Assembly (NCBI GenBank): GCA_038888155.1
Contig: JAWAJB010000013.1
Coordinates: 1-19,801, forward strand
DNA length: 19,801 bases
Origin: Desulfurococcaceae archaeon
GTDB lineage: Archaea; Thermoproteota; Thermoprotei_A; Sulfolobales; Desulfurococcaceae
Direction: 5' to 3'
Part shown: positions 480-18,372 of the stretch, one piece after another
Layout of the letters: each line of letters starts with the position of its first letter
How positions within the stretch are numbered: the first letter of the stretch is position 1
The notes under the pieces: model-generated
The model's database searches: none
What the model was told of the DNA's origin: nothing
Seen by the model: only the letters and a program-made list of their open reading frames with translations
Position numbers and translations under genes: made by a program

Positions 480-499
480 GTGAATTAAACAAATCAAAT

Positions 500-2804: not shown

Positions 2805-2887
2805 TAAGAAAATTTAATTAATCTTTTTAATTAATTTATCACTAACACGAACACTTATCACGTAGAAGGTAATTCTTCAAGCAGCAT

Positions 2888-3115
2888 TTGTGTAGAGTTT
2901 ACTTTGAAGTAATAGCTAGATTGGTGGGCCACGATATAGCTTGGAGGGTTGGTGAGTCCGTTAGGGCCGTTGGTCCGCTAATAATTATTTTCATGGAAAT
3001 CTTTGGCTCGCTAATTATTATTGGAGCGATAATAATCGTCCACTTCCACTATCATTACGAAATAAAGCGAGATTTTATTCGGTTAATTCCTGGAAAAATA
3101 ATGCCAGAAATGTGA
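2888..3115 (+). CDS. Small hydrophobic hypothetical protein or gene remnant
   Basis: 75-aa ORF with one long hydrophobic segment (GPLIIIFMEIFGSLIIIGAIIIV); no recognised family. Confidence 0.3.
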   Translation: MCRVYFEVIARLVGHDIAWRVGESVRAVGPLIIIFMEIFGSLIIIGAIIIVHFHYHYEIKRDFIRLIPGKIMPEM

Positions 3116-3188
3116 CGCAATAAATGGTTTTTAGAGAAGGGAAGGCTGCGGATAGCTTTATCTCTCTATAAGTGGGGTATTTTTATAT

Positions 3189-3375
3189 ATGGTGCGCTTG
3201 AATTCATGGCATTATAGATTCTACCGCAGGCATATCAGGACCGCCGCCGAGTGCCCACATTATGGACGTGGGCTCACCGAGGGCATATATAGAAGGCGGA
3301 ATATGCCCCTCATGCAAAAGGCCGCTGAGACGAGAAAATGTGCCTACTAACGGAAAAATAAATGGGCCAGCATAA
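3189..3375 (+). pseudogene. Frameshifted small Zn-ribbon protein
   Basis: ATG3189 MVRLNSWHYRFYRRHIRTAAECPHYGRGLT (degenerate CPxC), then in another frame AYIEGGICPSCKRPLRRENV...*; TTTAT upstream at ~3157. Confidence 0.35.
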
Positions 3376-3491
3376 TAGCTGGCTCTAAAGTTAAGGCTGC
3401 AGCTGCGCATTACACTCCAATTTCCTAGGATTTACAGAGGAAAATTGTTCCTCAAGCACGGCTTTTCATTGGCTTATGGGATGTACCGTTT

Positions 3492-3575
3492 TCATAGCCC
3501 TAACGACTGGTTATCGCAGAGCTCCTTAACGATGACCGTCTTCAAGGTCACGCTTACGTAACCGTTTGGACGCAA
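3492..3575 (-). pseudogene. Ribbon-helix-helix-like N-terminal remnant
   Basis: GTGAAGGG SD-like motif then TTG: MRPNGYVSVTLKTVIVKELCD...; alternating beta-ribbon pattern followed by a helix; early stop. Confidence 0.25.
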
Positions 3576-3763
3576 AACCCTTCACTTTAATAAGCTCTCT
3601 TTAAGCAGCTCGTCCTATTCAAAAATTGCCTTGCTTAAATTTTAATCAAGACAAAGTGGGACCTTGTCCTCTTATAGCTGCTTTGACCGCTAAATATCAG
3701 TGTTTTGCACGGGACTTTGAATGTGCTCTCATAAATCGGTAAGAAAAATATGCCCTAAAACTT

Positions 3764-3779
3764 GATAAGATTTTTAAAA
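3764..3779 (+). promoter_or_regulatory. Putative BRE/TATA promoter of the EVE-MTase unit
   Basis: GATAAGA-TTTTTAAAA about 45 nt upstream of the TTG3824 start, with a GGTGA SD at 3812-3816. Confidence 0.5.
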
Positions 3780-3823
3780 TCGGCCGTATTAAATGATTTT
3801 TGGAAGTGTTTGGTGACCTAAAC

Positions 3824-4261
3824 TTGGTTAATTATTGGTTTTGTGTAACTAATGAGGATAACTGGAATATTATTAAGTCGAAGCATGTTTGGGGCGTTCC
3901 TAAAAGGGGTAGGCGTTATGTTTTAGATGTTAAGATCGGCGATTTTTTGGTCTTTTATATTATTCCAAAAAAGATCGGCGGTATTTTTAGGGCTGTTTCA
4001 GAACCATTTGAAAGTGAGGAAAGAATCTTTAGCTGGATTGATTATGGTAAAGACGAGGTTTTTCCATTTCGCGTTAAAATTGAACCGTTTCTTGTCCCCG
4101 AGAAGGCATTGCCTTTTGATCGGCTTATTGAGAAATTGAGTTTTACTAAGGGACTTAAGCGATGGAGCATTAAGCTGCGTAGGGCTATGTTCAAAATTTC
4201 TGAGGAAGACTTCAACACAATTAAAAACCTATGTAAGTGGTTGAGGACTTATAATGTTTAA
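3824..4261 (+). CDS. EVE-domain protein (UPF0310-like, PUA-superfamily modified-base reader)
   Basis: NYWFCVTNEDNW...VWGV...VKIGDFLVFY...IGGIF..VSEPF...FPFRVKIEP; start moved to TTG3824 behind the GGTGA SD. Confidence 0.92.
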   Translation: MVNYWFCVTNEDNWNIIKSKHVWGVPKRGRRYVLDVKIGDFLVFYIIPKKIGGIFRAVSEPFESEERIFSWIDYGKDEVFPFRVKIEPFLVPEKALPFDRLIEKLSFTKGLKRWSIKLRRAMFKISEEDFNTIKNLCKWLRTYNV

Positions 4262-4349
4262 TTGTATGACTGCTGTTAGTGTGCTTTTTAAGAGATTAAT
4301 GAAAGAAGGAGATAAATTGCAATTATTGTGGTTTTAAGGTCGAAGTAGA

Positions 4350-5777
4350 ATGATTAATCCTCATCTTATTATTAAATTTTGGTCTCGAAAAAACCTAGAT
4401 TTATTTTTGGGAGAGATAAATGAATCAGATGTAATATGCGATCCATTTTGCGGATCTGGTTCTTCGGGTTTTAGTGCCGTTCTTAAGAATTCCTCCGCCT
4501 TTCTCTCAGATATAAACCCGGTTTCAATTTTCATATCTTACAACTTACTAAACAAGGAAAAGTTGGATGCAGAGATAATCAAAGAAGCTGAGAATTTATG
4601 TTTTGAGATTGAAAAAGAGATATATACTATTGATAGTTCGAAAATTGTGAATTTTGCTGTATGGAAAACTAATTACAAATGTCCATTCTGCGGCTCACAA
4701 ATTACCTCTATAAGAAGTAGTAAAGTTCGCTGTAGTGTATGCAATAGAAGAAGCGAAGTTAATGCGTTAATTGTTGATGAGAAGGTAATATCCTTGAGAT
4801 TCTTAACGGGAGAGGAGATAAGTGATGAAGAAAAATTAATTAAAAGATATCTTGAAATTGAAAATTGTTTAAGTTTAGAATGGCATCCCAAGGGAGAATT
4901 TATCTATCCAGGTACAAAAATTAAGTTCAAAGATGGACCACACAAGTCTATAAAAATTGAAGACTTGTTTACAAAACGAAATCTCTATGCGGCATCAAAA
5001 ATCTATTCATTTGTTGAGAAAGTATGGAAGGAGAATAAAGTTCAGGGAGACTTTTTGAAGATGTCTTTTATTGCTTCTCTGGCTAGCGCAACTAAAATGT
5101 TGCCCCACTCAAGGAGTAGTGGTCCTTCTTGGAAAGTACCCAGGTACTGGATCCCACCATTAAGGGAAGAAAGAAACTTCTGTAGGGCTTTTATAAGAAG
5201 AGTTAAGCTCTTGGCTGACTTTAAAACAAGGTGGTTACCCATTTCGTCAAATTATGATATTACGGTATCTTTTGAAGGGGAAATTTTCCATAGTTCCGAA
5301 AAATTTATCCATATATATAGAAGTAATGCTCTTGCAGCATCTCAAAGCATTCCAAAGGTGCATTTGGTAATACTTGATCCACCGCACTATGATGAGATTA
5401 ACTATTTTGAGATGACGTATCTTTGGCAGAAATGGTTGGAAGGAAGCTGTCAGGACAAGCGATTTAGAGATTATAGCTATTGGGAGAGTGAAATATGTGT
5501 TAGTGAAAAAGTTGGTAAAGACTTAAACTGGTACAGTTATCAGCTTCATAACGTTATTCATTCTTACATGAATTGCTTAAAGGAAAACGGTAGAATGCTG
5601 ATTATATTGCATAATAAGGATAGAAGCTTATTGAATGCTACGATTAAGGAGATTACAAGTGACCTCAAAGGAAATGTTAAAGTCGAAATTGAGTATAAAT
5701 ATCCAAGGATTCCTTCATCTACTCAAGGGCTTCATGGGCATAGGAAGTACTTATGTCTCATTAAAATAAAACGTTAG
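4350..5777 (+). CDS. Amino (N6A/N4C) DNA methyltransferase with internal Zn finger, COG1743-like
   Basis: N-terminal H..KFWSRK; motif I VICDPFCGSG; DINP; CPFC...CSVC; LFTKRNL; motif IV variant ILDPPHYDEINYFE. Confidence 0.88.
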   Translation: MINPHLIIKFWSRKNLDLFLGEINESDVICDPFCGSGSSGFSAVLKNSSAFLSDINPVSIFISYNLLNKEKLDAEIIKEAENLCFEIEKEIYTIDSSKIVNFAVWKTNYKCPFCGSQITSIRSSKVRCSVCNRRSEVNALIVDEKVISLRFLTGEEISDEEKLIKRYLEIENCLSLEWHPKGEFIYPGTKIKFKDGPHKSIKIEDLFTKRNLYAASKIYSFVEKVWKENKVQGDFLKMSFIASLASATKMLPHSRSSGPSWKVPRYWIPPLREERNFCRAFIRRVKLLADFKTRWLPISSNYDITVSFEGEIFHSSEKFIHIYRSNALAASQSIPKVHLVILDPPHYDEINYFEMTYLWQKWLEGSCQDKRFRDYSYWESEICVSEKVGKDLNWYSYQLHNVIHSYMNCLKENGRMLIILHNKDRSLLNATIKEITSDLKGNVKVEIEYKYPRIPSSTQGLHGHRKYLCLIKIKR

Positions 5778-8404
5778 AAATTATAAGATAGAATATCAGC
5801 GAACTTTTCCCACATTTTCTCAAATTCTTCCTTTTCTGATTTAACTGCTTCTTGACTCAGCTTAATCTCCGCTCTCTCTAAATTTCCATGAAATGCGCTT
5901 TCAGTTAAATTAAATGATCCTGTAATGACGATGTTATCTATAATATATGTTTTATCATGAACCAACCTTATTCCTGAGATATCTCCGGTCTTGACCAATA
6001 AATTGTTGCTTACGTTGTCCTTTAGTATTCTAAGCGTTTCTCTCTGAAATTCATATTCTTTGTCTTCTTTCCTTGGCATCCAGGTTATGACTCTAATCTT
6101 TACTCCTTTAGAAGATAACTCGATTAATCTCCTAGCGTAAGATGGGGAAATATAGGGACAGACGATATCTAAGTTTTTCTTTACATTAAACAGTATTGGC
6201 TCCACATATTCTCCTAAATTGTTTGATCTTATGGTTAATCCGCGCAATATTATATCCCTTAGCTTTTCCGCGAACTCATAAAGCAATGTTCTACTAGTGG
6301 TTAGTATTTGCTGAACCCCCTCCCCGCAATACCTTTCTAGTCTGACACATCCGTTACATCCATCTAAACACAGTTTAAATTCGTATCTTTCAAGTATATC
6401 GTCAAAAAAGTCGCCTATTTCCTCTACATCACTCTCAGCTAGCATGTCTCCTGCCAAAAGTACTGTTCTGGCGAGGGTTATGTCTAAGTCTATTCCTAAC
6501 CGATCTAATGCTTTCCTAAATTCCTCAATTTTCTTGCATATATTTCGAATCTTATTTGCTTTATTCTGCTCTTCTGGAGATCCTCTTTCTAACCTTTCAA
6601 TAGTTCTCGTTATTGTTTCACCAGCTTCCTTTTTCCTTAAGACGACTAGCCTATCAAAATTGTTAGCATGATTGTTAAGATACTGATATAACCAATTAGA
6701 AAAGTCATATATGAAGTTGTGTAATCCTTTCTCTTTAATTGCTCTAGAAATTGTGTCAACAATGCCTATTTTACCATTTTTAGCATTCTCGGCAAGCACT
6801 ATCCTATCGCTTTTATATCTATAGTAATACTTAGTTAGGATAAAGTTCATATCGACACCCGCAAATTTTTCTAAGATATACTGTGTTAGCATGTGTTCCA
6901 GAGAGTGTATGAGAGTTCTTCTAGCAAAGTCTACTAACTCGTTATTGCTGAAATTGGTAAAATGTCCCATATATTCTTCATATATTCTGCCTTCTTGACT
7001 TATCAGTTCTTTGACAGTTTTACTAAGTCCTTTATAATCTAGAGTCTTGCCTAATGCTTTACTTAAAATGAACTTCACAATTATGCTTTTTCTTATAGAT
7101 TCTTTTTTGAGGGCTTCTAAAATGATATTATTTAATAATTCTCGGTTAAACTCAAATTCCATAACTGATGTAGGAATAGTGTAACCTATTTCTGAATCAA
7201 AGAATATCCTTATTGTTGGTCTCGCATTTATAAACCATGTGCCTATTTCAACGGCGTACCATCTTGATTCAACTCTTTTCATATCATAAGCCGTAAAACG
7301 CATAAGGGATAATGGAAATTCATCTTCATATGTTATTATGCCGCCTCTTCCTACCTTTAGTCTCCTTAGAGGGTAAGATTTTGGATAGAATCTTCTTTTA
7401 TAGTATTTTCCGCTCCAAAATAATCTTCCATCGCATACTCCTCCACGTTTTTGGCTTAACCTACACTTATCTGTAAATGGGCATTTCGCGTCAAATGGGT
7501 CTGTTGATAAACCAAGCCCCTTATAGCAGAAGTATGGGTAATCTAACCTTAACTTCCATGACGCCAAAATATGCCCTATGCTCTTCGGCAAAATGTTTAC
7601 CTTCTCATTCAGAAACTGGATAAATTTCTCCTTCGTTTTGAATAAAGCTGCCTCTTTTTCTATTTGAGAACTACCGAATTTTATAAAAAACTGATACCTC
7701 CCACCAACTTCTAGAGTTATGCTTCTCATAGACAAGTCTATCAATTCTATGGTTTTGGGAACGACTAAATCTCCTTCGAAAGTATATTTTCCTTTAATCA
7801 GTATAGACTTTTTCCCTCCAACCGTTTTTCTTAAAATCTCATCCCAAGAGTCCCAGGAAACTTCCTTTGGTTTTATGAGCCAAAGGAACCTAGAACCTAA
7901 TATGTCCGTCATTTCTTTATCGATGTCTTTCTCATAGACGCATTTCGTTAGCTCAAATGGAGGAGCTCTATACATGAAGTTTGTTATAGATACTTCCGAG
8001 AGAGTTTGTTCGCCTTCATCTAAGCGAATGTTCTCGTATTTTATTTCATCAATTTTATGATCTATCGATTCTATTCCTAGTCCCCTAAATCCTGCTATTG
8101 ACTCAGCTACTAATTTTCCCGAACCCGCAAGTGCGGGTATTTCGGGTAATGATAATAAATATATCAACTCTTCAGGGGAATCTCTAAATTTCTCTGAGAG
8201 CTCAACAAACTTGAGTAGTTTCACTTTACCCTTTTCGATTTTATCTAACGCGTCTAATATACTAATTTCTATTGTGCCGATACTCTTCGCCTTATTTAAA
8301 AGTCTTTTTTCGTAAAACTCCTCCTTCTTTAAGCGAATCTTTTGATAAAGTTTGTTCAGTGTTGCTTCAAGATCTTCGGTCATTTTTATCCTTTCTGCAT
8401 TCAT
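5774..8404 (-). CDS. DUF1998/MZB (DrmB-like) protein fused to a C-terminal PLD-family nuclease (DrmC-like)
   Basis: HSLEHML, E..KNGKIG and CLDGCNGCVRLERYC are DUF1998-type motifs; C-terminal CPYIS...GVKIRVIT...HDKTYIID..VITGSFNLT is an intact HxK(x4)D...GSxN PLD site; ATG8404 overlaps the helicase stop (ATGA). Confidence 0.85.
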   Translation of the reverse strand: MNAERIKMTEDLEATLNKLYQKIRLKKEEFYEKRLLNKAKSIGTIEISILDALDKIEKGKVKLLKFVELSEKFRDSPEELIYLLSLPEIPALAGSGKLVAESIAGFRGLGIESIDHKIDEIKYENIRLDEGEQTLSEVSITNFMYRAPPFELTKCVYEKDIDKEMTDILGSRFLWLIKPKEVSWDSWDEILRKTVGGKKSILIKGKYTFEGDLVVPKTIELIDLSMRSITLEVGGRYQFFIKFGSSQIEKEAALFKTKEKFIQFLNEKVNILPKSIGHILASWKLRLDYPYFCYKGLGLSTDPFDAKCPFTDKCRLSQKRGGVCDGRLFWSGKYYKRRFYPKSYPLRRLKVGRGGIITYEDEFPLSLMRFTAYDMKRVESRWYAVEIGTWFINARPTIRIFFDSEIGYTIPTSVMEFEFNRELLNNIILEALKKESIRKSIIVKFILSKALGKTLDYKGLSKTVKELISQEGRIYEEYMGHFTNFSNNELVDFARRTLIHSLEHMLTQYILEKFAGVDMNFILTKYYYRYKSDRIVLAENAKNGKIGIVDTISRAIKEKGLHNFIYDFSNWLYQYLNNHANNFDRLVVLRKKEAGETITRTIERLERGSPEEQNKANKIRNICKKIEEFRKALDRLGIDLDITLARTVLLAGDMLAESDVEEIGDFFDDILERYEFKLCLDGCNGCVRLERYCGEGVQQILTTSRTLLYEFAEKLRDIILRGLTIRSNNLGEYVEPILFNVKKNLDIVCPYISPSYARRLIELSSKGVKIRVITWMPRKEDKEYEFQRETLRILKDNVSNNLLVKTGDISGIRLVHDKTYIIDNIVITGSFNLTESAFHGNLERAEIKLSQEAVKSEKEEFEKMWEKFADILSYNF

Positions 8405-10755
8405 GGACATACCCTCTTAAGAATCTTAAATAAGCTTTTAGAGAGTTCTGTTATTTCATCGTCGTTGGTCTCTTTACCGAGTTTTGTAGATTTTCTAGCG
8501 ATTACTTTTATGAGCTCAAATAATTCTCCAATTTCAAAAATGTAATCATTCAATTTCCTCCATTCCTCCATTCTTTTGGGTAATTTATTAAATTCCTCTA
8601 AAAGCTCCTGAAGTAATATCTCCGCTTTTACATCTTCATCTTTTCCAACCTTTGCATCAAGGTCGCTCAGAAGGTCTTTTGTTTCATTAGATATCTCCAT
8701 TATTTTGTTTAGGAAAGTCTCTAGGTCTGATAGTTTTCCGTCAGTGCCTAGTATATAAGTATTTTCTCCTTTTCTGGCAATCTCATCTAGGAGTAAAGAA
8801 AATACTTGATACCTTTTTACAGCAGTGTTTTTCCACGCTATAGGTATATCTTTAGCTTTGAAACCCTCTATTAAGGCTTCCGGGTTATATAAGTAGTATA
8901 ATTCCATGGGAGTGTTTCTTAGCACCACTATAGATAGTGTTGTATATAGTGTCTTCTCCGGGTTTCTTCCAGCTCTACCTATCCTTTGTGGTATGCTTTC
9001 CAGCATAAAGGGAACCCCAACTATCGTTATGAACGTTACGTTTGGGTAATCCACTCCAAGCTCAAGCGTTGATGTTGATATAAGAACCCCAAGCTTGCCA
9101 TCTACAAAGTCCTTCTCTATCTTCTCTCTATTTTTAATACCTGCATGATGCAACATTATCCTCTGAAATATTTCATTTGGAGTTTTTTCTGGATCAAATA
9201 CGCTAGGCTTTCCTACGTAGGGCCAATAAGCGTAGGGGTCAGCTGGATCAGGCACTAATCTTTGATTAAAGTGATCTTTTGGTTCATGATAGTATGTTGC
9301 TGCGACTTTTGCTTGATGAAAAACCCTATAGAGTTCTCTTATACTATCAATAAAGATGACTCCTTGCATTCTTCTGTAATAGTGTATTGTGCCTAACAGT
9401 AAGGCGAGCTCATAGACGACCGTTTCCCAAGATCTTAGTGGGTTTACCGCCATTATTAGGTAAATTACTTTTTTGTTCTCTCCTTTCTCTTTAGATTCGA
9501 TAAAAGCAATCTCTTTCTCAGGGTCAAGGTCGAGTAAATCTCTGGCAAAGGTATTTGGTTTGGATATTGTTGCTGAAGAAATTATAATTACGGGTTGCGA
9601 TTCCGAACTTATTTTCAATCTCTTGATTAAATATCGAACATTACCGCCAAGTAAAGATTGGTAAACATGCGCCTCATCTAGGATTATCATTTTTAAGTTC
9701 TTAAAGATGGCGTAATCGTATTGTATTGTTTTGCTCGGGATCCTCCAATCTAAGGTCCAGACATTAGTAAGCAATATATCGGGTTTTTTCTCCCATATCT
9801 CTTCTCGGTAACTAAATATCCAGTCAAAACTAGCGCCACAATGGGAACATCTTATCCATATTCCTTGTGCGGTTCTAACATATTTTAGCTCCCCACCTTC
9901 CTTCCCTTTGCTTCCACATGCTGGGCATATAGCCCCGCGAAAAGATGAATCGGATTCAATGTTCTTTTTCCATGGAGTCTCACCGTCATCTATAGCTATG
10001 GTAATTTTTGCAGTTTTGGGGCCGAAGGTTTGGATATACTGATTAACCCTATATAGAACTGCTAGTATCTTGTTAAATTGATCTCTTTCTAAGGATTTTC
10101 TCGGATAAATTAAGAGGATCTTTATGCTCTTCTCTTTTTCTCCCTTAATTTTATCAGCTAATATTTGAATTAATGCTGGTATGAAGAAGGCGTATGTTTT
10201 TCCACCAGATGTAGGCGCCATTAAAACATATGCCTTTTTGTCGCCTTGCAATATGCTTTTTATCGCTTTAAATTGGAAGTCTGAGAATCCTTCAATATCT
10301 CCTAGTCCTTCTATTCCCTTTGGATCCTTGTATAACGCGTGCTTAATGATCGGATAAATTTCAGAAGGAACTACGCTTGCTATTTCTTCAAACTTGTGAT
10401 CTTCAAAGCTCGGTATTTTCTCATTTCTTACGTAGATTTTTGTTTCTAGAGGATAACGTAAACTCCCATACTCGACGGTTATATTCGATGCTCTGTAAGC
10501 CAAGTCAAAGTGTAAACTTCTTATTTTATTCTGACCATTTGATACTATGAAGCCCATTTGAGTTAATTTATCCAGGATTTTCTTTGCATCGTTTTGACTG
10601 CACCTTAAGGACGCTGTTATAGCGTTAATGGCTTCGCCTTCAGTTAAATAGGCTTCTTTTATTCTTTGTTCATATGCCCTATATTTTGTATATTCTTGGT
10701 CTATAAGAGAATGGTATGCTAAAACAATATCTCTCAAGTATCTTCCCCGTTCCAC
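8401..10755 (-). CDS. YprA/MrfA/DrmA-like SF2 DEAH-box helicase (MZB domain encoded by the next gene)
   Basis: Q motif FSDFQ, APTSGGKT, IYPRKSLERDQ, inserted CPAC...CSHC, PDILLTN, DEAH, SSAT, HHAG, STSTLELGVD, QRIGRAGR; GTG start. Confidence 0.92.
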   Translation of the reverse strand: MERGRYLRDIVLAYHSLIDQEYTKYRAYEQRIKEAYLTEGEAINAITASLRCSQNDAKKILDKLTQMGFIVSNGQNKIRSLHFDLAYRASNITVEYGSLRYPLETKIYVRNEKIPSFEDHKFEEIASVVPSEIYPIIKHALYKDPKGIEGLGDIEGFSDFQFKAIKSILQGDKKAYVLMAPTSGGKTYAFFIPALIQILADKIKGEKEKSIKILLIYPRKSLERDQFNKILAVLYRVNQYIQTFGPKTAKITIAIDDGETPWKKNIESDSSFRGAICPACGSKGKEGGELKYVRTAQGIWIRCSHCGASFDWIFSYREEIWEKKPDILLTNVWTLDWRIPSKTIQYDYAIFKNLKMIILDEAHVYQSLLGGNVRYLIKRLKISSESQPVIIISSATISKPNTFARDLLDLDPEKEIAFIESKEKGENKKVIYLIMAVNPLRSWETVVYELALLLGTIHYYRRMQGVIFIDSIRELYRVFHQAKVAATYYHEPKDHFNQRLVPDPADPYAYWPYVGKPSVFDPEKTPNEIFQRIMLHHAGIKNREKIEKDFVDGKLGVLISTSTLELGVDYPNVTFITIVGVPFMLESIPQRIGRAGRNPEKTLYTTLSIVVLRNTPMELYYLYNPEALIEGFKAKDIPIAWKNTAVKRYQVFSLLLDEIARKGENTYILGTDGKLSDLETFLNKIMEISNETKDLLSDLDAKVGKDEDVKAEILLQELLEEFNKLPKRMEEWRKLNDYIFEIGELFELIKVIARKSTKLGKETNDDEITELSKSLFKILKRVCP

Positions 10756-10810
10756 TAATATTAAGTTTTAATTTTGATTAAATTATTATTGTTTGTGTCG
10801 GTGTTTAAGG
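10756..10810. promoter_or_regulatory. Compact bidirectional promoter between the two helicase genes
   Basis: 55-bp AT-rich gap; minus-strand TTTAAT starts 27 nt before GTG10755; plus-strand TTTTAAT at 10766. Confidence 0.55.
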
Positions 10811-13777
10811 ATGAATATACCTTATCCATTTTGTCTCTTAGATGAACGGATTCAATATTGGATCAGCAGGCTGGGGTTTTTGGAACCAACTGAAATTCAG
10901 AGACTTAGCATAGAGCCGATACTTAGAGGAGAGAGCGTTCTATTGGTTAGCCCAACGGGTAGTGGGAAGACGGAGGCTGCCGTCTTTCCGCTTCTGCATA
11001 GGATTTTAAAGGAGGAAAAGGGAGACTGCGTAAAACTGCTTTATGTTAATCCGCTTAAGGCTCTTACGAGAGACTTAACTGAAAGATTAAGGAGGATTGC
11101 CGATCTTTTAGGGTTGAAGGTTAGGCCCCTTTATGGCGATGTAAGTAAAGCCTTTAGGACCCCTGTTCCCGATATAGTCATTATCACCCCTGAGAGCTTT
11201 GAGATAATTCTCGACTGGGCTCCAAGCTGGTGGCCATATTTTAAGGCAATAAAATATGTTGTTGTTGACGAGGTTCATGAGCTTATTTTCTCTAAAAGGG
11301 GTTATCAGCTTCTGGTACTTTTGGAGAGGTTAAAGCATCTTTCTGGAAATAATCTTCAAAGAGTTTGTCTCTCAGCAACGGTTTGTAATGCCGATCTTGT
11401 TGCCGAGTTTTTTGGTGGCTCGGATGGTAAATTAAAAGTTATTCAAGCTTCTCAAGAAAGAGCGCATAAGTTTGACGTCAAGTTGGCGACACCTTTGTCT
11501 CAGGAGGAGACTGAGAATCCATTTCTTGCTGGTGCCAGAGCTATCTTTGAATCTCTTAATGGTAAGAAGTCTCTAATTTTTGTGGGGTCAAGATATTCCG
11601 CTGAGAGATTAAAGGCGGAGCTAGAAAGATTCGGCATTAATGTGGGTGTGCATCATGGCTCCATTGGTTTGGGGGAGCGGGAGATTTCTGAGGATGTCTT
11701 CAAGAAAGGAGATTTAAAGGCTTTGGTCGCTACTAAAACGCTTGAGTTGGGCATTGATATTGGTGATGTGGAGCAGGTTATTCAGTATAGGTCTCCAGGT
11801 CAGGTCATCGCTTTGATTCAGAGGGCTGGCAGAAGCATGCATAAGCCCGGAGAAGAGTCCCTCTGTAAAATCGTTTCTACGGATCCCGAAGATTTTTTGG
11901 AATGTCTAGCATTAGTAAATCTGTTTGATAGCGGTTTTCTTGAGAGACCAACCATTTTAGATAAACCTCTCGATGTTCTGGCAAAGGAAATTCTTGGGTA
12001 TGCTTTACATAATTATAGCGGTCGTAAAAGGTATGGGCGAGCTTTCACCCCGATAAATTTAGAGTCCATATATACAGTTATTATTCGCTGTTTTCCCTTC
12101 AAATCCTTAAGTGAGGGAGAATTTATAGAGGTCGTAAAAACCCTTGTTGAAGATGGGTTATTAACATTAGAGAAGAATGCGCCCTTTCCTGGACCCAAAT
12201 TTTGGAGAGTTTGGAAGTTTAAGGAGGATGAGGTAGCCGCGTGGCCTTCTTTAAACTTTAGAGAGTTTTTTAGTATGATTCCAAAAAGGGAGGTTTTTGA
12301 GGTTTGGGTTGATTTTGGGTTTGGTAAGCTGAAAAAGATAGGCGAGCTTGACTCCTTTTTTGTTTATAGGAGCCTTGCTACTGGCATGGTTATTAGGTTA
12401 GCTGGTTTTGATTGGAAGGTTGTCGAAATAGATGAAAGGAATCATATTGTTTACGTGACTGAGACTAAAGGTGGCGGCGAGGTTCCTGCTTGGAGAGGTG
12501 AAGGCCCGCAAAGAGATTACGCTATTGCTAAGGAGATGCTATCGATAATCGATAGGCTTATTAAGGGTAAAGTTGCTCTCGGTCCAGCGAGGGAAGACGC
12601 TGTAAAAATTCTCAATGAATACGTTAATAAGGTGGATAAGATCTTTGTAGATTCGCTTTTGAATGGGAAGATTGTTGTTGAGTATTGCCCTAATGAGAGG
12701 ACGTGGATTTTTATAACTTTCCTTGGCGAAAGAATTAATAGATCTTTAGCTTCCGCGATTTATGAGAGGATTGCCGAGAGCAGTTTACTCGTAAAATATG
12801 TTATTTCTCCTATAGGTTTTGCTTTTAAATCTGAGGTTATCAATCCTCTTTCTGCATTAAGGAGTATACGGTCTGATGAAGAGTTTAGGGATCTTGTTTG
12901 GAGACATATCAAGACAGCTTCGCCTTTTACTAGACTTATTAAAGATCAAATTAGCGAACATTTTGGTTTTCCATCTAATGAGGTTTTATTGGAGAGGGAG
13001 GCGGCTAAGCAGGCTAAAGAGGTTTACTATGACCTAGAGGGGGCGTTGGAGGTCTTTAAAAGGATTATATCTGGCCATATAGTGGAGGAGGTTGTGGCTG
13101 AGTTCTCTCAGTTAGGGCAGAGTATACTCCATTATCCTTTCGAGAGGTCATGGCTCGCTAGTCCATCCCTCATAGTGAGAGAAGCATTGAAGCATTATCC
13201 TTCTGGAACATTAGATGAGATTCTTGAGTATCTTTGGGGCAATCCTATAGAGGTTAAGGAGGAAATGAGGAAGTTAACAAAAGAAATCGATATCGTTGCT
13301 TTTCTTGACTTGGATCTGAAGGGTTGGAGCATCGCTCTAGTTCCGTTAGAGGAGGAGTGGGCTACAATTAGGGTTCCAGTTGCAACTAGATATTTTGTGA
13401 TCCGGAGTGATGATGATTTGAAAAAGGTTCAAGAGGAGCTAGAGAGAACTAAGTTCCCATTGAATGAGTTAATGGGACATGTTGTGGAGGTAACTTTCAC
13501 TAGGATTGAGGATGGGGTTGAGGAACCATATGATCTAAAGGTGACAAAGGTTTTTGATATAGTGCTTAACAATATAGTATCGAGCAGGATTATGAAAAAC
13601 ACTCATAAAATTGATTTTAAAGTGCACGTGAAGGGGACAAATGTAACTATAAAGCATTATGGTGTACCGACGGCGGTATTAACCCTATTAATCCGGAGAG
13701 ATATGGCGGCAATCCTCAATCTTCTTAAGCAAGGTATAGTTAGTGGAAAAAGAAATGTCATATTTGAGCTTCCTTAA
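10811..13777 (+). CDS. lhr: Lhr-family SF2 helicase with a C-terminal extension (alternative start TTG10793)
   Basis: PTEIQ, SPTGSGKTEAA, YVNPLKAL, DEVHEL..SKRG, SAT, HHGSI, ATKTLELGIDIG, QRAGRSMH, PLDVLA, IGELDSFFV and VPAWRGE are Lhr-core signatures. Confidence 0.92.
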   Translation: MNIPYPFCLLDERIQYWISRLGFLEPTEIQRLSIEPILRGESVLLVSPTGSGKTEAAVFPLLHRILKEEKGDCVKLLYVNPLKALTRDLTERLRRIADLLGLKVRPLYGDVSKAFRTPVPDIVIITPESFEIILDWAPSWWPYFKAIKYVVVDEVHELIFSKRGYQLLVLLERLKHLSGNNLQRVCLSATVCNADLVAEFFGGSDGKLKVIQASQERAHKFDVKLATPLSQEETENPFLAGARAIFESLNGKKSLIFVGSRYSAERLKAELERFGINVGVHHGSIGLGEREISEDVFKKGDLKALVATKTLELGIDIGDVEQVIQYRSPGQVIALIQRAGRSMHKPGEESLCKIVSTDPEDFLECLALVNLFDSGFLERPTILDKPLDVLAKEILGYALHNYSGRKRYGRAFTPINLESIYTVIIRCFPFKSLSEGEFIEVVKTLVEDGLLTLEKNAPFPGPKFWRVWKFKEDEVAAWPSLNFREFFSMIPKREVFEVWVDFGFGKLKKIGELDSFFVYRSLATGMVIRLAGFDWKVVEIDERNHIVYVTETKGGGEVPAWRGEGPQRDYAIAKEMLSIIDRLIKGKVALGPAREDAVKILNEYVNKVDKIFVDSLLNGKIVVEYCPNERTWIFITFLGERINRSLASAIYERIAESSLLVKYVISPIGFAFKSEVINPLSALRSIRSDEEFRDLVWRHIKTASPFTRLIKDQISEHFGFPSNEVLLEREAAKQAKEVYYDLEGALEVFKRIISGHIVEEVVAEFSQLGQSILHYPFERSWLASPSLIVREALKHYPSGTLDEILEYLWGNPIEVKEEMRKLTKEIDIVAFLDLDLKGWSIALVPLEEEWATIRVPVATRYFVIRSDDDLKKVQEELERTKFPLNELMGHVVEVTFTRIEDGVEEPYDLKVTKVFDIVLNNIVSSRIMKNTHKIDFKVHVKGTNVTIKHYGVPTAVLTLLIRRDMAAILNLLKQGIVSGKRNVIFELP

Positions 13778-13826
13778 CAAATGCAATAATTCCGTTTAAT
13801 GTTGTTTTAAAGGAACTTAATTAAGT

Positions 13827-16800
13827 TTATTCTCCGAGGTTTATTTGCGAGAATATTTTCTTCCAAACCAAGTCTTCAACTTTTGCTCTTATCTTTGCAT
13901 CCGGAATCGTGGTTAATAAGAGATCATTAATATCCTTTTTAAGTTTCTCGTAATCTTTTTCAAAGGCTTCTACTGCTTTCTCAAGAGAATGTTTGTCCAA
14001 GGGTATTTTAACTAAGGATGATCCAGTTAAGGCAGCATAATACACAAATCTGACTTCTTTTTCTTTCCAACTTCTATAAATTTCCTCATCACCCACTTGC
14101 ACATAGAAGCCACTTAAATCGCTTCCAAAGACAACTTTACCTTTAGGAATACTTATTTCATTAGACCATAAACCACGATAGTCCTTTAGATAGTCTCTTG
14201 GAAATTTTTTAACCTGACCAGTTAACCTACTTACAATATTATTGGCTAAGCTTTCAATATTAACTCCTCTCTTCTTCTTTCTTTTTTCAACTGTTTCAGC
14301 CCTTTCAATCCTAGACTTAACAAGGTCTATAACAGCTTTGTAAACTTCAAGTTGCTCATCTTCTGTTAAGCCTAAAATTTCGCCCATAACTATTCTGTCC
14401 AGCTCTCTACGATCAGGCTTGACTTTATCTAGAGAGATTTCTTCCAAAGAAGCTGAGCCTAATTCTTCAAAAATTGAGCCGATCGAGCGTTGAGAGATCC
14501 TTTCTAATGATTTTCTGAGCTTGTATATATGCTGAATAGAAAGGTTGGATGTATTAATAACCGGTAACGAGGCAACTTCATATACAGCAGTAAAGAGTGC
14601 TCCTTGTCCTAACTGAACCGTACCAATCATTTCTGCAAATATAGGAATTACCGTAGAGTTTAGGAATGCGCCTAAGACCTCCGTGTCTCCTTTAGGAAGT
14701 ATGCCATACATCACTTTGTCTATTAAGACATTTCCTTTATTAAGAAAAACTCCAAAGGCTTCGTTATAAGTTGAACGCCATACTAGTGGATAATTCACCA
14801 TCCCTATTTCATACCATCGCTGTCTCGATGCGCATGTTGGACGTTTATGGAATCCCTGTTCTTCCCCCCACTCAATATACTTTAAGACATTTGTTCCTCT
14901 TAGTTTCCTCTTATCCTTATGTATCATTAGAACTCTGTATTTGAGATCTTTAGGATTAACGATTATGGATTTACATTCTCTCGGAGATTTTATTACGTAA
15001 TTCGGAATCCATATAACATTGCCATCTACTAATACATCATCGAGCTTATAGTCTTTTGAATATTGTGAATCCTTGAAATATTCGCCATCTTTATCTAGCC
15101 ATATATCCTCTTTTGGAATATAATCCTTTATCTTAAGCCATTCATCACATCTTACTGGATGCATCCAGAATTCTCTTTCAATCCCAAGCTCCTTTATCCT
15201 CTCTTCAGTTAAGTAGAAAAATTCATTTGCACCTGTTTTAATACCAAATCTCACTTCGGCAACTTTCTTTAAGGGAACAAACAGGTCTTTGCCCTTCTCT
15301 AGGATCTTGAAGAATATTTCCGGCGCCCGTATATATTTACCCCATTTAGATCCCTCATACCTTCCTTCCTCTTCATCCCAGCCCTCAGCCCATAAATCAG
15401 CCTGACTAACCATAGTAATCCTAAAATTATCATCCTCGTACATGAGGAGAGTTTTGCCGAGAAACTCTATCTTCTTAATGCGGTTAGCCAAGCGCTCATC
15501 CCTATCGCAATTCTCTATAAACTCGACAAACCTATCAACAGTTTTCCAGCGCTCCTCACTTTCAGCCACCGGCAAAAGATCCCTAAGTCTCTTCTTCAAA
15601 TAAATAAATTTTACAAGATTTGAGTTCCTAGCCTTTTCATCACTACACTTTTCAAGTATAGTTATCGCCGTATTTATGTCAGCATCCTCAAACCAGCGCT
15701 CAACCTTAGACTCGATAACAGCAATGATCCTAAAGTTCTTTAAGAAAAATTCCTGCAGATGCTTGCCAAAATCAACATCAAGCCACGAATTAGAAGTTAT
15801 AAGACCCATCCTACCATCCTTAGCAAGAAAGCTCGCACCATGAAGGAAGAAATAAACGTATATACTTGACCTCTTGCTAACCTCAATCCCATGAGCTGCC
15901 TTAACAAGCTCCCTAAGTCTATCCTTATACCCGCCAAGAAAGACATCCTCCATTTCCTCCTGCCTAGTATAAGGCGGATTCGTAACAACAGCCTTAAAAT
16001 CTTTGGGAAATTCTGCCTGAAAATCCTCACCCTTAACCTCCGGCAAGGGGAAAGCCAACTCGTATAGTGGCGCCCTCACCTCAGGTCGAACATCAAAAAA
16101 GTCTCTACAAGCAACAGTCGGGACACTTTCAATGGAGGCGATCTCCTCCCTCATTAAATTTATTAATGCAAGATGAGCTGGAAACTTAGCCACATCAACG
16201 CCATAAATCTCTCTTATAAGCTCTTGATGCGATTTAATGGGCTTAGAGTATCTATTCTCTCTAAACAGCTTTTGCGCCAAATACTTCTTCCTCTGATAAG
16301 CCCTAACAAGGAACGTTCCAGAACCACATGACGGATCTATAACCTTATCGTCAGGATGCTTGACCGTGAAGCCCAAAATCAAATCCACAATATCTGTAGA
16401 AGTAAAGTACTGACCAAGCTTGTGCCTTTCAGTCTTAGGTATGAGCTTCTCAAATATCTTGCCAACAATATCGTAACCGAGTTCTGAGAAGTCATACTTA
16501 TTAAGCTCATTAATTAACCGCTTAATATCTTCAACAATAACATCTGGAATAGGAATCTTCTCGAGAAAATCCGTAGCAAATATTACACCATAACGTGGAT
16601 TAATCCTAATCCCATAATTAAAGTACTGTTGCAAAACCTCTTTAAGCTGGTCTCCCGTAATCACACCACTAACATCAATATCCCTTAGCCCCAACTTCTC
16701 CTTGAGAATGTTATAGAAGAGAATCTTATTGATCAGCAAGTATATAGCCTGTCTAGAGACCCTATCATAATCCTCCTCACTATCCTCAAAAATCCACCCT

Positions 16801-17459
16801 TGACTAACAAACCACTCAGCCAGCTTATTAAGAAACTCCGGATCCTTCTCCTTCCTAACAATCAAGTCATTAGAAAGCGGTATGTAAAGCGAATCAACAG
16901 CAGTCCTAAGATAATAAACAAGAATCTCATCGGGAGACAGCTTAGGGAGCACAAAAACCTCAAGAGGCCTAGGCTTGGCGACCTTAACCTCATAATATGC
17001 CCAAAGATTCTTAAGGAATCTAACCAAGAAAGACTTAACCGCTCTTTCAACATCACTTCTAGTCAAATCCCCCAAATCCTTAATGTCGAGAACATCCTCA
17101 TGAAGAAGCCTCCTATCAAGCAGCGTGGTTCCAGGGCGAAAAGTCTCCCAAAGAACAAATTTATTAATGTTCCATGTAGCAAAAAATGGAATCCCCGCCT
17201 CAGTAGCCTTCCTCAAAGCATCGCTAATAAGCTCCTCATCATAAGCGCTAACAGTCGGCCTCTTAAGCTCTATCAAACAAGCAACTCCGCCAGAAGAATC
17301 CCAAATAACAATATCAGGATACTTAACCAAGCCAGAAACAGTCCTCAACTGAACCTCCTGATCAGCCCTAACAAAACCAATCCCCAAATCACAAATAACC
17401 TTATTAAGCCACTGCAAAACGACGCCCTGAGCCCAACGCTCATTATAATGAACGCTCAT
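13827..17459 (-). CDS. Fused restriction endonuclease-N6-adenine methyltransferase (Type IIG-like), 1210 aa
   Basis: N-terminal YPDIVIW...LIELKRP (PD-(D/E)XK); LGQYFT; VIDPSCGSGTFL; VVTNPPY; GIKTGANEFF and a C-terminal TRD-like region. Confidence 0.93.
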   Translation of the reverse strand: MSVHYNERWAQGVVLQWLNKVICDLGIGFVRADQEVQLRTVSGLVKYPDIVIWDSSGGVACLIELKRPTVSAYDEELISDALRKATEAGIPFFATWNINKFVLWETFRPGTTLLDRRLLHEDVLDIKDLGDLTRSDVERAVKSFLVRFLKNLWAYYEVKVAKPRPLEVFVLPKLSPDEILVYYLRTAVDSLYIPLSNDLIVRKEKDPEFLNKLAEWFVSQGWIFEDSEEDYDRVSRQAIYLLINKILFYNILKEKLGLRDIDVSGVITGDQLKEVLQQYFNYGIRINPRYGVIFATDFLEKIPIPDVIVEDIKRLINELNKYDFSELGYDIVGKIFEKLIPKTERHKLGQYFTSTDIVDLILGFTVKHPDDKVIDPSCGSGTFLVRAYQRKKYLAQKLFRENRYSKPIKSHQELIREIYGVDVAKFPAHLALINLMREEIASIESVPTVACRDFFDVRPEVRAPLYELAFPLPEVKGEDFQAEFPKDFKAVVTNPPYTRQEEMEDVFLGGYKDRLRELVKAAHGIEVSKRSSIYVYFFLHGASFLAKDGRMGLITSNSWLDVDFGKHLQEFFLKNFRIIAVIESKVERWFEDADINTAITILEKCSDEKARNSNLVKFIYLKKRLRDLLPVAESEERWKTVDRFVEFIENCDRDERLANRIKKIEFLGKTLLMYEDDNFRITMVSQADLWAEGWDEEEGRYEGSKWGKYIRAPEIFFKILEKGKDLFVPLKKVAEVRFGIKTGANEFFYLTEERIKELGIEREFWMHPVRCDEWLKIKDYIPKEDIWLDKDGEYFKDSQYSKDYKLDDVLVDGNVIWIPNYVIKSPRECKSIIVNPKDLKYRVLMIHKDKRKLRGTNVLKYIEWGEEQGFHKRPTCASRQRWYEIGMVNYPLVWRSTYNEAFGVFLNKGNVLIDKVMYGILPKGDTEVLGAFLNSTVIPIFAEMIGTVQLGQGALFTAVYEVASLPVINTSNLSIQHIYKLRKSLERISQRSIGSIFEELGSASLEEISLDKVKPDRRELDRIVMGEILGLTEDEQLEVYKAVIDLVKSRIERAETVEKRKKKRGVNIESLANNIVSRLTGQVKKFPRDYLKDYRGLWSNEISIPKGKVVFGSDLSGFYVQVGDEEIYRSWKEKEVRFVYYAALTGSSLVKIPLDKHSLEKAVEAFEKDYEKLKKDINDLLLTTIPDAKIRAKVEDLVWKKIFSQINLGE

Positions 17460-17619
17460 GAATAACGCCTCTTAAAATCAATCTCCATCTCTTACTGAAA
17501 TAAATTATCCATACCATGGTTATATTTTTTACTTATTACACTTTCATCCTAAGAACAACAAATATTTCATAATATTCTCAATGACCACCTTCCGAAAGGT
17601 TTCAACGCAACAACCATGC

Positions 17620-17928
17620 CTATGAGTTTGAATGATTCTTCATGCTCTTTCCACACAACATTATTCCATTTAAACGCGTAAAAATAACATACCTAGTTTT
17701 TCCACGACATAACACCCCACAGTGCTCAATAGTCTTAAGAACCCTAAGTTTAAAGTTGTAAAGGAAGCATAGCAGCACCATTACACTGCAATTAGAGCAT
17801 ACTTCATATTGCAGCACTGGCGGCCTCATAATGATGCCATCATCCTCCGCTTCAACAGCACATAAGCAGATCTTCCTAAGACCGAAAACAAGCCTCCTCG
17901 TACCCTCCAATTCTTCCTGCATGCTCAT
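17620..17928 (-). CDS. Hypothetical protein, possibly degenerate
   Basis: GGGGTGA SD before ATG; protein-like N-terminus (EELEGTRRLVFGLRKI...AVEAEDDG) but less convincing downstream. Confidence 0.35.
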   Translation of the reverse strand: MSMQEELEGTRRLVFGLRKICLCAVEAEDDGIIMRPPVLQYEVCSNCSVMVLLCFLYNFKLRVLKTIEHCGVLCRGKTRYVIFTRLNGIMLCGKSMKNHSNS

Positions 17929-17956
17929 CTTCATCACCCCCACTAATAATTGGTTT

Positions 17957-17986
17957 GCAGGGGTTCACATCCTGCCCGGAGCACCA
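17957..17986 (+). repeat. Degenerate tRNA 3'-end fragment (att-like remnant)
   Basis: GCAGG-GGTTCACAT-CCTGC-CCGGAGC-ACCA = T-stem/loop, 3' acceptor strand, discriminator and CCA; no 5' half nearby. Confidence 0.65.
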
Positions 17987-18372
17987 AGAAAATTTCCCTG
18001 TTTTTGAAATGAGGCTTAAAACGGGCTCCACCTGCAGGGGTGAAGTTTGCATGCTAAGGTTTAACCATTGGAGTTATAAATTGTTCTCGATGCAGCGATT
18101 AAATTGGCTTAACCTTATTGAAGAAGCGTCTAAAGGAATGATAAGAAGCCGGAGTCCAAAACCACTAATCAACTAATTAAAAATTAACTCGGTCTTTTTA
18201 AGACTTTAATGACCACTAAGGAGCTGCATCGGCTTTTAGGGTTATCTGACTACACGCTTGCTAAATAAGATTTTTATCTCATACCGTAGGATATAGTTAG
18301 TGCGGCTCCCTTAGGTAAGCGGTATGCGGCTTTACTTGAGGTCTGCCTAGTCACTTTACTCCCGACTTTTGC

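Follow-up and report, generated by a model that had tools for sequence, protein, structure and literature searches.

A candidate archaeal defence cassette, apparently related to DISARM and Dpd, with a YprA-family helicase and a DrmB-like/phospholipase D fusion protein

A five-gene cassette was found on a contig assigned to a Desulfurococcaceae archaeon; it encodes a Type IIG restriction enzyme, an Lhr-family helicase, a YprA-family helicase of 784 amino acids (aa), an 878-aa protein ending in a phospholipase D (PLD) domain and a DNA methylase. The window analysed is an entire contig (C13; 19,801 bp) from a genome bin of 134 contigs and 2.42 Mb. The cassette appears to be a relative, so far undescribed, of two bacterial anti-virus systems, DISARM and Dpd, and it is very probably a defence module of the YprA/DISARM-Dpd kind. 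We lean, by a modest degree, towards the fuller explanation that it is a mobile archaeal cassette in which the Lhr helicase and the Type IIG enzyme cooperate with a DISARM/Dpd-like restriction core. On whether all five genes act as one system, the evidence is nearly balanced and tips slightly to the negative.

The gene neighbourhood was compared across related loci. A word-based protein search with the 878-aa family returned 61 clusters at 38 to 100% identity, and all those bearing an organism name were archaeal; pattern scans with the family alignment yielded 6 loci from species genomes and a further 59 from metagenomes. After four containment duplicates (L025, L030, L044 and L049) were dropped and three distant loci (L010, L011 and L070) were set aside, 58 distinct loci from archaeal genomes and hot-spring metagenomes were available, a gene being scored as assessable only at loci whose stored flank reached far enough to include it. 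The YprA-family helicase gene lay directly upstream of the 878-aa gene on the same strand in 49 of 49 assessable loci, the Lhr gene was divergent from the helicase gene in 35 of 35, and the Type IIG gene lay beyond Lhr in 22 of 22 (in L056 on the other strand and at 31% identity). A methylase gene followed the 878-aa gene directly, in convergent orientation, in 40 of 48 loci. This linkage held down to 39% identity of the 878-aa protein, the intergenic region between the Lhr and helicase genes measured 17 to 124 nt in 35 of 36 loci, and all catalytic motifs were intact in every full-length ortholog. Identities of the other proteins co-varied with that of the 878-aa protein (Spearman coefficients of 0.89 for the helicase, 0.91 for Lhr, 0.76 for the Type IIG enzyme and 0.76 for the methylase, from related loci whose points are not independent). 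When 440 open reading frames (ORFs) from the window and 61 loci were clustered, only the cassette families were widely shared, and the most frequent outsider, a DUF6308-like family, was present in 11 of 62 loci. Conserved linkage with the methylase and Lhr, on which a preliminary description of this DNA had staked its DISARM-like reading, was therefore found, and the Type IIG gene, which that description had bracketed as optional, proved as conserved as Lhr.

The 878-aa protein (876 aa in its database form) has N-terminal helices (residues 1 to 75), a DrmB/MrfA-like region at about 110 to 720 and a single-HKD PLD domain at 721 to 878 (Pfam PLDc_2, 7.3e-19). In an alignment of 19 family members, two four-cysteine clusters (Cys 295/310/316/326 and 681/685/688/695) and residues H818 and K820 of the PLD HxK motif were invariant, and conserved His and Gly-rich motifs were present; the HxK motif and the four-cysteine cluster were kept in 47 of 47 full-length orthologs. 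A structural model of the protein (pLDDT 70.8) was good from residue 350 and poor, mostly below 50, over residues 80 to 345. This model was aligned to about 48,000 Protein Data Bank (PDB) representatives with the exhaustive aligner VIA-align. The PLD part matched Nuc (Z 17.9), residues 114 to 717 matched DrmB from the DrmAB complex (7s9w_B; Z 11.3, rmsd 4.1, 232 residues aligned), and the C-terminal module of MrfA was matched over 182 residues (Z 10.6); DrmB and the MrfA module were the only entries in the top 50 that were neither PLD nor coiled-coil proteins. Because of these matches, the 878-aa protein is, by its predicted fold, a DrmB-like zinc module fused to a Nuc-type single-HKD PLD nuclease. 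The fusion proposed in the preliminary description is thus upheld by the invariant cysteines, the HxK motif and the fold alignments. A zinc-binding DUF1998-type module with a four-cysteine cluster, of the sort that is either fused to a helicase or encoded by an adjacent gene, appears here in the adjacent gene. The matches to DrmB and MrfA needed the exhaustive aligner: Foldseek with the whole model returned PLD folds only, and the 19-member profile searched against PDB sequences returned PLD entries only. A single helix (residues 699 to 723) precedes the PLD domain in the model, with no four-helix bundle. The best named match of the PLD domain was DpdK, at 29.7 bits against an NCBIfam equivalog cut-off of 100, and PADLOC models of DrmC scored 4.7e-4 or weaker on the protein.

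The 784-aa protein has a superfamily 2 helicase core with a DEAH motif, an N-terminal winged-helix-like domain and long C-terminal helices. A zinc ribbon is inserted in RecA1 (residues 277 to 306), the protein lacks an OB-CON-DUF1998 module of its own, and the DEAH motif was kept in 40 of 40 orthologs. Among PADLOC models it matched DpdJ (6e-42) and DrmA (1.1e-32); the NCBIfam DpdJ model matched at 1.1e-33, with 116 bits against an equivalog cut-off of 800, and the best phmmer match in the PDB was MrfA/YprA (2.5e-18). An AlphaFold2 model built on 20 homologs (pLDDT 81.9) gave MrfA (6.6e-18) and DrmA (7e-16; TMq 0.49 to 0.50) as the top distinct proteins in Foldseek, with the Ski2/Brr2 and Lhr helicases ranking below both. 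The nearest relatives are therefore YprA/MrfA, DrmA and DpdJ, which places the protein in the YprA family. The earlier label of DrmA-like is right as to the family, but the labelled matches lie nearer to DpdJ than to DrmA. When annotated plasmids were searched with the helicase by tblastn, 5 of the 25 records matched carried a dpdJ label, most others were haloarchaeal helicases, and none of the 25 carried a DrmA label. One such relative is encoded on a Natrinema plasmid, where the locus is BRIGADE-like and also includes a tRNA-guanine transglycosylase and a small gene for a PLD protein.

The helicase and DrmB-like genes are split and overlap at an ATGA sequence, and their products are similar in fold to DrmA and DrmB. 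A predicted complex of helicase residues 150 to 784 with residues 1 to 360 of the 878-aa protein reached an ipSAE of 0.49 (runs of 0.49, 0.54 and 0.43), with 0.00 for the best of three controls, at least 68% of contacts shared between runs and a partner pLDDT of at least 66. In calibration, 58 of 80 solved complexes passed the mark, as did 2 of 110 mismatched pairs; the passes at 0.60 or under comprised only 7 of the 80 solved complexes and both of those mismatches. This prediction lends weak support to a complex of the two proteins. Since the structure of DrmAB has been solved, likeness to it or memory of it may contribute to the predicted interface.

More distant architectures delimit the core of the system. 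Contigs C33 (L004:1674-10280) and C57 (L005:2-7269) of the same genome carry two distant pairs of helicase and DrmB-like-PLD genes at 24 to 30% identity, each with a divergent 610-aa zinc-ribbon DPPY methylase and a 475- to 486-aa protein that has no Pfam or PADLOC match; Lhr, Type IIG and EVE genes were absent from both loci. In the Sulfolobaceae and Stygiolobus loci, L010 and L011, the order is methylase, helicase, partner, and in G104 the helicase and its partner are fused. A zinc-ribbon or DPP[YF] methylase was present within two genes in 6 of 6 distant architectures with enough flank (C33, C57, L010, L011, G057 and G104). Because the distant architectures keep only a methylase, a helicase and a DrmB-like-PLD protein, the core is the trio of methylase, YprA-type helicase and DrmB-like-PLD protein, and Lhr and the Type IIG enzyme are additions in the sub-family of the window. 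A fourth conserved core gene was considered and rejected: the candidate proteins of 420 to 490 aa (C33/C57, G057, G104 and L010) were not similar to one another across architectures by BLASTP, and neither Pfam nor PADLOC gave a match for them. Together with the window cassette, the loci on C33 and C57 make three paralogous systems in one genome bin.

The core components also occur joined in single proteins. A profile search of 1.84 billion representatives yielded 65 proteins at E < 1e-30, including proteins of about 1600 aa whose C-terminal half matched the whole 878-aa profile; those looked up came from Thermococcus barossii, T. argininiproducens, Culexarchaeum and MSBL1. Three of about 1590 to 1680 aa (P0068, P0070 and P0074; from T. 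barossii, T. argininiproducens and Culexarchaeum) contain the helicase, the DrmB-like module and the PLD domain in one polypeptide, and in an archaeon of the window's order (L072:7392-12425) the helicase is joined to the DrmB-like module.

The methylase of the window has motif I at residue 31, a zinc ribbon at residues 111 to 131 and a DPPH motif IV at residue 343. The DPPH form, in place of DPPY, DPPF or DPPW, was present in 41 of 41 orthologs, and the methylases of distant architectures have DPPY or DPPF; this invariance is a small enzymological curiosity. PADLOC models matched in the order MTase_II (5.9e-24), PglXI (5.4e-14), DUF1156_MTase (6.3e-7) and HmaB (1e-6), and the NCBIfam model DUF1156_antiphage matched at 1e-9, with 37 bits against a cut-off of 1000. 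A Pfam scan detected no DUF1156 domain in the protein, and no DrmM model was among its 22 PADLOC matches. To judge from these matches, the methylase weakly resembles COG1743/DUF1156-like enzymes of the PglXI/HmaB type, in keeping with its earlier description as a stand-alone COG1743-like methylase.

The Lhr-family protein has a RecA1-RecA2 core, an Lhr winged helix and a DEAD-associated domain (Pfam DEAD, 1.4e-32; Helicase_C; WH_Lhr, 7.6e-8; DEAD_assoc, 4.7e-7). Its best PADLOC score was for BrxHI (8.7e-108) and its best PDB match was Lhr of M. smegmatis (4.6e-47); the cut-offs of the NCBIfam Lhr equivalogs were not reached. In a tree of 63 sequences made with FastTree only, and with several long branches, the 32 full-length cassette Lhr proteins formed one side of a branch with SH-like support of 100, and 29 genomic Lhr proteins of the order grouped by taxonomic family, as vertical descent predicts. 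Lhr homologs at E < 1e-80 were present in 124 of 401 genomes of the phylum, at 33 to 44% identity to the window protein, and the genome has Lhr paralogs of its own on contigs C1 and C3. As judged from this phylogeny, the cassette Lhr is a clade of its own, apart from the vertically inherited genomic Lhr. The concern raised in the preliminary description, that the helicases might fall in housekeeping repair clades in conserved chromosomal contexts, was not borne out, the Lhr clade being separate, the element patchy and its surroundings variable.

The Type IIG protein combines in one polypeptide an N-terminal PD-(D/E)xK nuclease, a gamma-class N6-adenine methylase with an NPPY motif and a variable target-recognition region, the predicted parts of a Type IIG enzyme. 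It matched Pfam N6_Mtase (8.9e-20), Eco57I (1.9e-19) and MmeI_Mtase, and among PADLOC models REase_MTase_IIG (7.2e-49, over residues 6 to 657), PglX (1e-12) and, in part, DrmMI (1.2e-12). The nuclease motif and NPPY were invariant in 15 of 15 full-length orthologs, and residues from about 770 to 1000 varied.

The genes of the cassette are arranged on alternating strands (Table 1), reading + + - - + - from the EVE gene to the Type IIG gene. The ORF listing reproduced the six intact genes of the preliminary description, and Pfam returned the same domain calls (EVE, PLD, DEAD/Helicase_C, Lhr winged helix with DEAD_assoc, and N6_Mtase/Eco57I). The intervals were also recovered when ATG starts were used: 88 nt between the EVE and methylase genes, a 4-nt tail-to-tail (3'/3') overlap of the convergent methylase and 878-aa genes, a 4-nt overlap, ATGA, in which the helicase stop codon meets the 878-aa gene at its second ATG (8404), 55 nt of AT-rich sequence between the divergent helicase start and the Lhr ATG at 10811, and 49 nt between the convergent Lhr and Type IIG genes. 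Because the strands alternate, the 4-nt overlap at the methylase and the 49-nt gap are convergent junctions and the 55 nt would be a divergent promoter region. The idea of one operon was accordingly abandoned in favour of what, from the layout, appear to be at least four transcription units. The helicase and 878-aa genes look to be the sole pair with translational coupling, the EVE and methylase genes may form a second unit, and the Lhr and Type IIG genes stand alone.

Table 1. Features of the window and Hma-like gene sets at related loci
Feature	Position	Strand	Remarks
Type IIG enzyme	13827-17459	-	1210 aa
Lhr-family helicase	10793-13777	+	994 aa from TTG 10793; ATG at 10811
YprA-family helicase	8401-10755	-	784 aa
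DrmB-like/PLD protein	5774-8410	-	878 aa; 876 aa from second ATG 8404
DNA methylase	4350-5777	+	475 aa
EVE protein	3800/3824-4261	+	stand-alone, PUA-like
DUF6308-like ORF	2118-2804	-	intact; beyond EVE
CAAX-protease ORF	18373-19134		intact; flank
tRNA-Phe(GAA)	19523-19599	-	ARAGORN; Rfam 66.7 bits
Hma-like set	L010:9036-17185
Hma-like set	L012:11008-14418
Hma-like set	L041:14800-18282
Hma-like set	L063:275-8981

The distribution of the cassette is patchy. A search of 18 further genomes of the family, 4 of which share the genus, gave no match to the 878-aa protein, and only 4 of 150 other genomes of the order contained distant matches (at most 28% identity); no relatives came from IMG/VR viral contigs or, by tblastn, from PLSDB plasmids. 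The GC content of the cassette is 0.379, against 0.438 for the genome. Window positions 401 to 561 match the start of contig C37 (L071, 10.6 kb) at 98%, and positions 19523 to 19649 are identical to its end; between these anchors C37 holds 10 kb of different genes, including a peroxiredoxin, a broken helicase and an amidotransferase. Matching anchors at both ends, the second of them the tRNA-Phe gene, imply that the window and C37 enclose alternative contents. By this comparison the island looks like a strain-variable insertion next to a tRNA gene, present either as two variants of one site or as two co-binned strains. The bin has 6.4% contamination, its contigs range in GC content from 0.35 to 0.53, and it exceeds in size four genomes of the same genus (1.3 to 1.5 Mb); it probably mixes more than one population. 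Candidate joints between the tRNA end and positions 50, 4839 and 17453 were not counted, their sides being only 22 to 25 letters long.

At least five studies contributed hot-spring metagenome runs with near-identical cassette DNA; these runs cover window positions 13882 to 15200 less well, and one 6.7-kb metagenome contig covers positions 4587 to 11322 with 81 differences. In one metatranscriptome library, short contigs lay on the 878-aa, 784-aa, Lhr and Type IIG genes, which is a hint, not proof, of transcription; no contig from this library was listed on the EVE gene or most of the methylase gene, which is no evidence of silence.

The surroundings of related loci were examined with Pfam on 150 of 151 non-cassette flank ORFs of at least 100 aa. 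The flanks differed from locus to locus and abounded in defence and mobile genes, among them GmrSD, Hma-like DUF1156, DUF499 and SNF2 genes, Schlafen/AlbA, AbiJ, Mrr_N, integrase, resolvase and IS110. Hma-like sets, made up of a DUF1156 methylase, a DUF499 ATPase and an SNF2 helicase with NOV_C, adjoin the cassette in four loci (Table 1). In one of these, L063, all that follows the set is the part of the 878-aa gene for its final 297 residues; a helicase gene is missing, and the locus is a remnant.

The EVE protein matched Pfam EVE (6e-15) and NCBIfam PRK00809 (4.8e-36, below cut-off), and its gene is the only copy in the genome (tblastn, 1e-5). An EVE gene stood somewhere in the stored flanks of 8 of the 58 related loci, with neither its position nor its orientation constant. 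The preliminary description had counted EVE as a part of the system; it is better regarded as an occasional accessory.

The DUF6308-like protein, which recurs as an accessory to the cassette, matched Pfam DUF6308 at 2.2e-5, below cut-off, and DUF6308 clusters of the ESM Atlas with scores of 0.97 to 0.99. Homologs occur in 11 loci including the window, and in the other ten (L007, L015, L017, L020, L022, L028, L033, L037, L038 and L054) they lie between the Type IIG and Lhr genes. In the window this slot is empty and the DUF6308-like gene lies beyond EVE; its last 180 nt or so recur on contig C30 at 89% identity.

The flanks of the window contain three stretches without an ORF of at least 110 aa (229 to 2117, 2805 to 3799 and 17460 to 18372), which is unusual for a compact archaeal genome. 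Pfam found no match for 12 small flank ORFs (of 25 proteins scanned), Rfam found only the tRNA in the window flanks, and the left flank (229 to 3799) had no counterpart in 40 genomes of the same family except for one 38-nt match (E 6.5e-4). The earlier statement that the genes are surrounded by pseudogenes could not be confirmed: the flanks are poor in ORFs and lack recognisable counterparts, yet they hold intact ORFs and a tRNA gene.

In the proposed mechanism, the helicase and the 878-aa protein would form a DrmAB-like motor, with the 878-aa protein supplying the zinc-binding canopy (OB-CON-DUF1998-like) that the helicase lacks. Its single-HKD PLD domain would have to pair with a second copy to build an active site, by analogy with Nuc. 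The zinc-ribbon DPPH methylase would mark host DNA, and the motor would load on unmarked invading DNA or its single-stranded ends, translocate and degrade. The dedicated Lhr-type 3'-5' helicase, which would share the short divergent promoter region with the YprA-family helicase, may join this core, and the Type IIG enzyme may make the first cuts in unmodified DNA, leaving ends to be processed by the two helicases and the PLD domain. Such a system would parallel DISARM class 1 part for part, with Lhr corresponding to DrmD, the Type IIG enzyme to DrmMI, the 784-aa helicase to DrmA and the 878-aa protein to DrmB and DrmC together.

The most integrated form of this model is tentative, and we regard it as a possibility to be held with some doubt. 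In it, sequence-specific cuts by the Type IIG enzyme would provide ends on which Lhr and the DrmAB-like motor load, the PLD domain welded to DrmB would destroy the invader processively, and the two methylases would provide a double self-mark. According to Bravo et al. 2022, the DISARM PLD nuclease DrmC is dispensable and does not co-purify with DrmAB; for that reason a covalent DrmB-PLD link would be mechanistically meaningful. If the integrated model is true, this link would show how DISARM-type motors couple to their nuclease.

The strongest rival to cooperation among the five genes, which we consider somewhat unlikely, is that three independent systems (a stand-alone Type IIG enzyme, an orphan Lhr helicase of the defence type and a DISARM-like module of three genes) happen to be neighbours in a defence island, kept together by common descent and hitch-hiking with neither physical nor functional cooperation. 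Several observations weigh on its side and against a single system. The alternating strands imply separate promoters. The slot between the Type IIG and Lhr genes is a variable insertion site that takes unrelated genes (DUF6308-like, Ser/Thr kinase, Schlafen/AlbA, AbiJ_NTD5 and unknowns), and defence genes cluster generally, as the flanks show. By domain content the Type IIG enzyme is self-sufficient, with its own nuclease, methylase and recognition region. In L012 its last 389 residues are 63% identical to those of the window, and the other four genes are 97 to 99% identical (L012:3-1190 compared with window 13827-15000), which fits an independent exchange of the recognition and C-terminal region; discordant Type IIG identity was also seen in L041. 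Distant architectures have the core without Lhr and the Type IIG enzyme, and the adjacent methylase is missing in 8 of 48 loci (L045, L046, L047, L056, L058, L059, L061 and L068). Shared ancestry of the loci makes synteny at 40 to 70% identity weaker evidence than independent associations would be. Other points bear on the defence reading as a whole. Pfam did not detect DUF1998 (PF09369) or MZB in the 878-aa protein even at E <= 10, the PADLOC DrmB model did not match it, and the poor modelling of residues 80 to 345 leaves its OB-fold part unsupported. The oversized, contaminated bin makes the host assignment of the contig uncertain, and the argument for a defence function is one of homology and genomic context.

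Against mere neighbourhood, Lhr and the Type IIG gene keep their places in every assessable locus while everything outside the cassette changes. The Lhr clade is found only in the cassette, the best genomic Lhr in the 401 genomes reaching no more than the 33 to 44% identity given above, and the divergent spacer between Lhr and the helicase is consistently short. The layout, moreover, mirrors DISARM class 1 and ARMADA, in which a second helicase and a PglX-like methylase are integral parts.

A modification-dependent, Type IV-like system, in which the EVE protein or the zinc modules would detect base modifications in the invader and direct the helicase and PLD domain while the methylase serves another purpose, is improbable. 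EVE domains are predicted readers of modified bases, an EVE-like domain forms the N-terminus of DISARM class 1 DrmA according to the main text of Bell et al. 2025 (bioRxiv 10.1101/2025.09.15.676423), EVE genes recur beside the cassette in several arrangements, and GmrSD genes are frequent neighbours. EVE is, however, absent from 50 of the 58 related loci and from all six distant architectures examined, and the constant partner is a methylase with motifs intact in 41 of 41 orthologs, as in modification-protected systems. A DNA-repair module of a thermophile, with the PLD domain in the role of the MrfB exonuclease beside MrfA/YprA and Lhr repair helicases, is more improbable still: among solved structures the closest sequence relative of the helicase is MrfA, a repair helicase, the cassette Lhr resembles ligase-associated and mycobacterial Lhr, and the YprA family includes a repair branch (Bell et al. 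2025, main text), but the cassette is a patchy, low-GC island at a tRNA gene with alternative contents, not found in the 18 genomes of the same family, it is constantly linked to DNA methylases and a restriction enzyme among defence and mobile neighbours, its best profile matches are the defence models DpdJ, DrmA and BrxHI, and vertically inherited Lhr is a different clade, of which the genome has its own paralogs.

As a defence module, the cassette would enlarge the poorly mapped defence repertoire of hyperthermophilic archaea, organisms with unusual viruses, by an innate system of several genes, and it would define a defence-dedicated Lhr clade. The fusion of a PLD domain to the DrmB-like subunit, and in Thermococcus and Culexarchaeum also to the helicase, gives a direct means of studying the coupling between YprA-type motors and DNA degradation.

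No description of this gene arrangement was found in full-text literature searches, which did not extend to the supplementary tables of Bell et al. 2025, where the proteins may be listed; the main text of that study contains no occurrence of Lhr, Thermoproteota or Type IIG, and the portions of the CoCoNuT paper and of a 2026 BREX survey that were covered do not include the arrangement. Among known systems, the cassette shares with DISARM a YprA-family helicase split from a DUF1998-type zinc module that the next gene encodes, a PLD nuclease, a DNA methylase, a defence-island setting and a zinc module in RecA1 of the helicase. According to the main text of Bell et al. 2025, the split helicase is typical of DISARM, a zinc module in RecA1 is a trait of both Dpd and DISARM helicases, and a PLD protein without the four-helix bundle is typical of Dpd. 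In the DrmAB complex, as described by Bravo et al. 2022, the C-terminus of DrmA wraps the N-terminus of DrmB. The presence of a second helicase with a PglX/Eco57I-type methylase parallels DrmD and DrmMI of DISARM class 1. The cassette differs from DISARM in that its DrmB-like and PLD parts are one polypeptide, whereas DrmC is a stand-alone PLD protein, usually with an N-terminal four-helix bundle; as the C-terminal domain of a DrmB-like protein, the cassette PLD is not a DrmC. An Lhr (BrxHI-like) helicase stands in place of the SNF2 helicase DrmD or of DrmE, and neither class marker was among the best 25 PADLOC matches of each of seven window proteins, in agreement with the preliminary description, which had recognised neither. 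The adjacent methylase, weakly COG1743-like and with DPPH, appears to be neither DrmMI (N6-adenine, PglX-like) nor DrmMII (C5), and the PglX-like component carries a PD-ExK nuclease of its own. The helicase is short, with an N-terminal winged helix replacing the EVE-like domain and trigger loop, the hosts are archaea, and no DrmB model was detected by sequence.

With Dpd and BRIGADE the cassette shares a helicase whose best labelled matches are DpdJ and which carries a single zinc module in RecA1 and a winged-helix-like domain at its N-terminus. Its PLD domain has DpdK as best named match and lacks the four-helix bundle, and the Natrinema plasmid relative has the helicase followed by PLD beside the tRNA-guanine transglycosylase. 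Neither protein reaches the DpdJ or DpdK equivalog level by the bit scores given above. A methylase takes the place of the 7-deazaguanine genes (DpdA-C and QueC/D/E), and 7-deazaguanine Pfam families were absent from the scanned window ORFs (9 + 13 proteins) and from the 150 flank ORFs of related loci. The cassette helicase is also split, with the four-cysteine cluster kept, whereas canonical Dpd lost that cluster.

MrfAB/YprAB is likewise a helicase and nuclease pair and provides the closest solved relative of both the helicase and the zinc module. MrfA, however, is unsplit, its partner MrfB is an exonuclease of the DnaQ type, and neither a methylase nor a restriction enzyme is linked to the pair, which serves repair in a different context, whereas the cassette is a patchy island. 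In BREX type 2, the Lhr-like BrxHI travels with a PglX/Eco57I-type methylase (PMC12839542). The cassette lacks PglZ, BrxC/PglY, PglW and BrxD, and its methylase bears a nuclease domain and scores far better as a Type IIG enzyme than as PglX.

ARMADA, whose type I occurs in archaea, follows the same three-part logic of a YprA-family helicase-nuclease, a second superfamily 2 helicase and a PglX-type methylase. In ARMADA the helicase is unsplit, with BrxA-like, beta-barrel and MarR-like inserts and a Vsr-type nuclease end, whereas that of the cassette is split, shows none of these inserts in Pfam scans and is paired with a PLD nuclease, and the second helicase of the cassette is Lhr/BrxHI-like and not BrxHII/RapA-like. 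The main text of Bell et al. 2025 describes a YprA-like helicase, a second helicase and a PglX-like methylase as recurring together in DISARM class 1 and ARMADA. The cassette would extend this trio to an Lhr/BrxHI-type helicase and a true Type IIG enzyme, fitting the DISARM class 1/ARMADA theme with a fused DrmB-PLD protein and an extra DPPH methylase.

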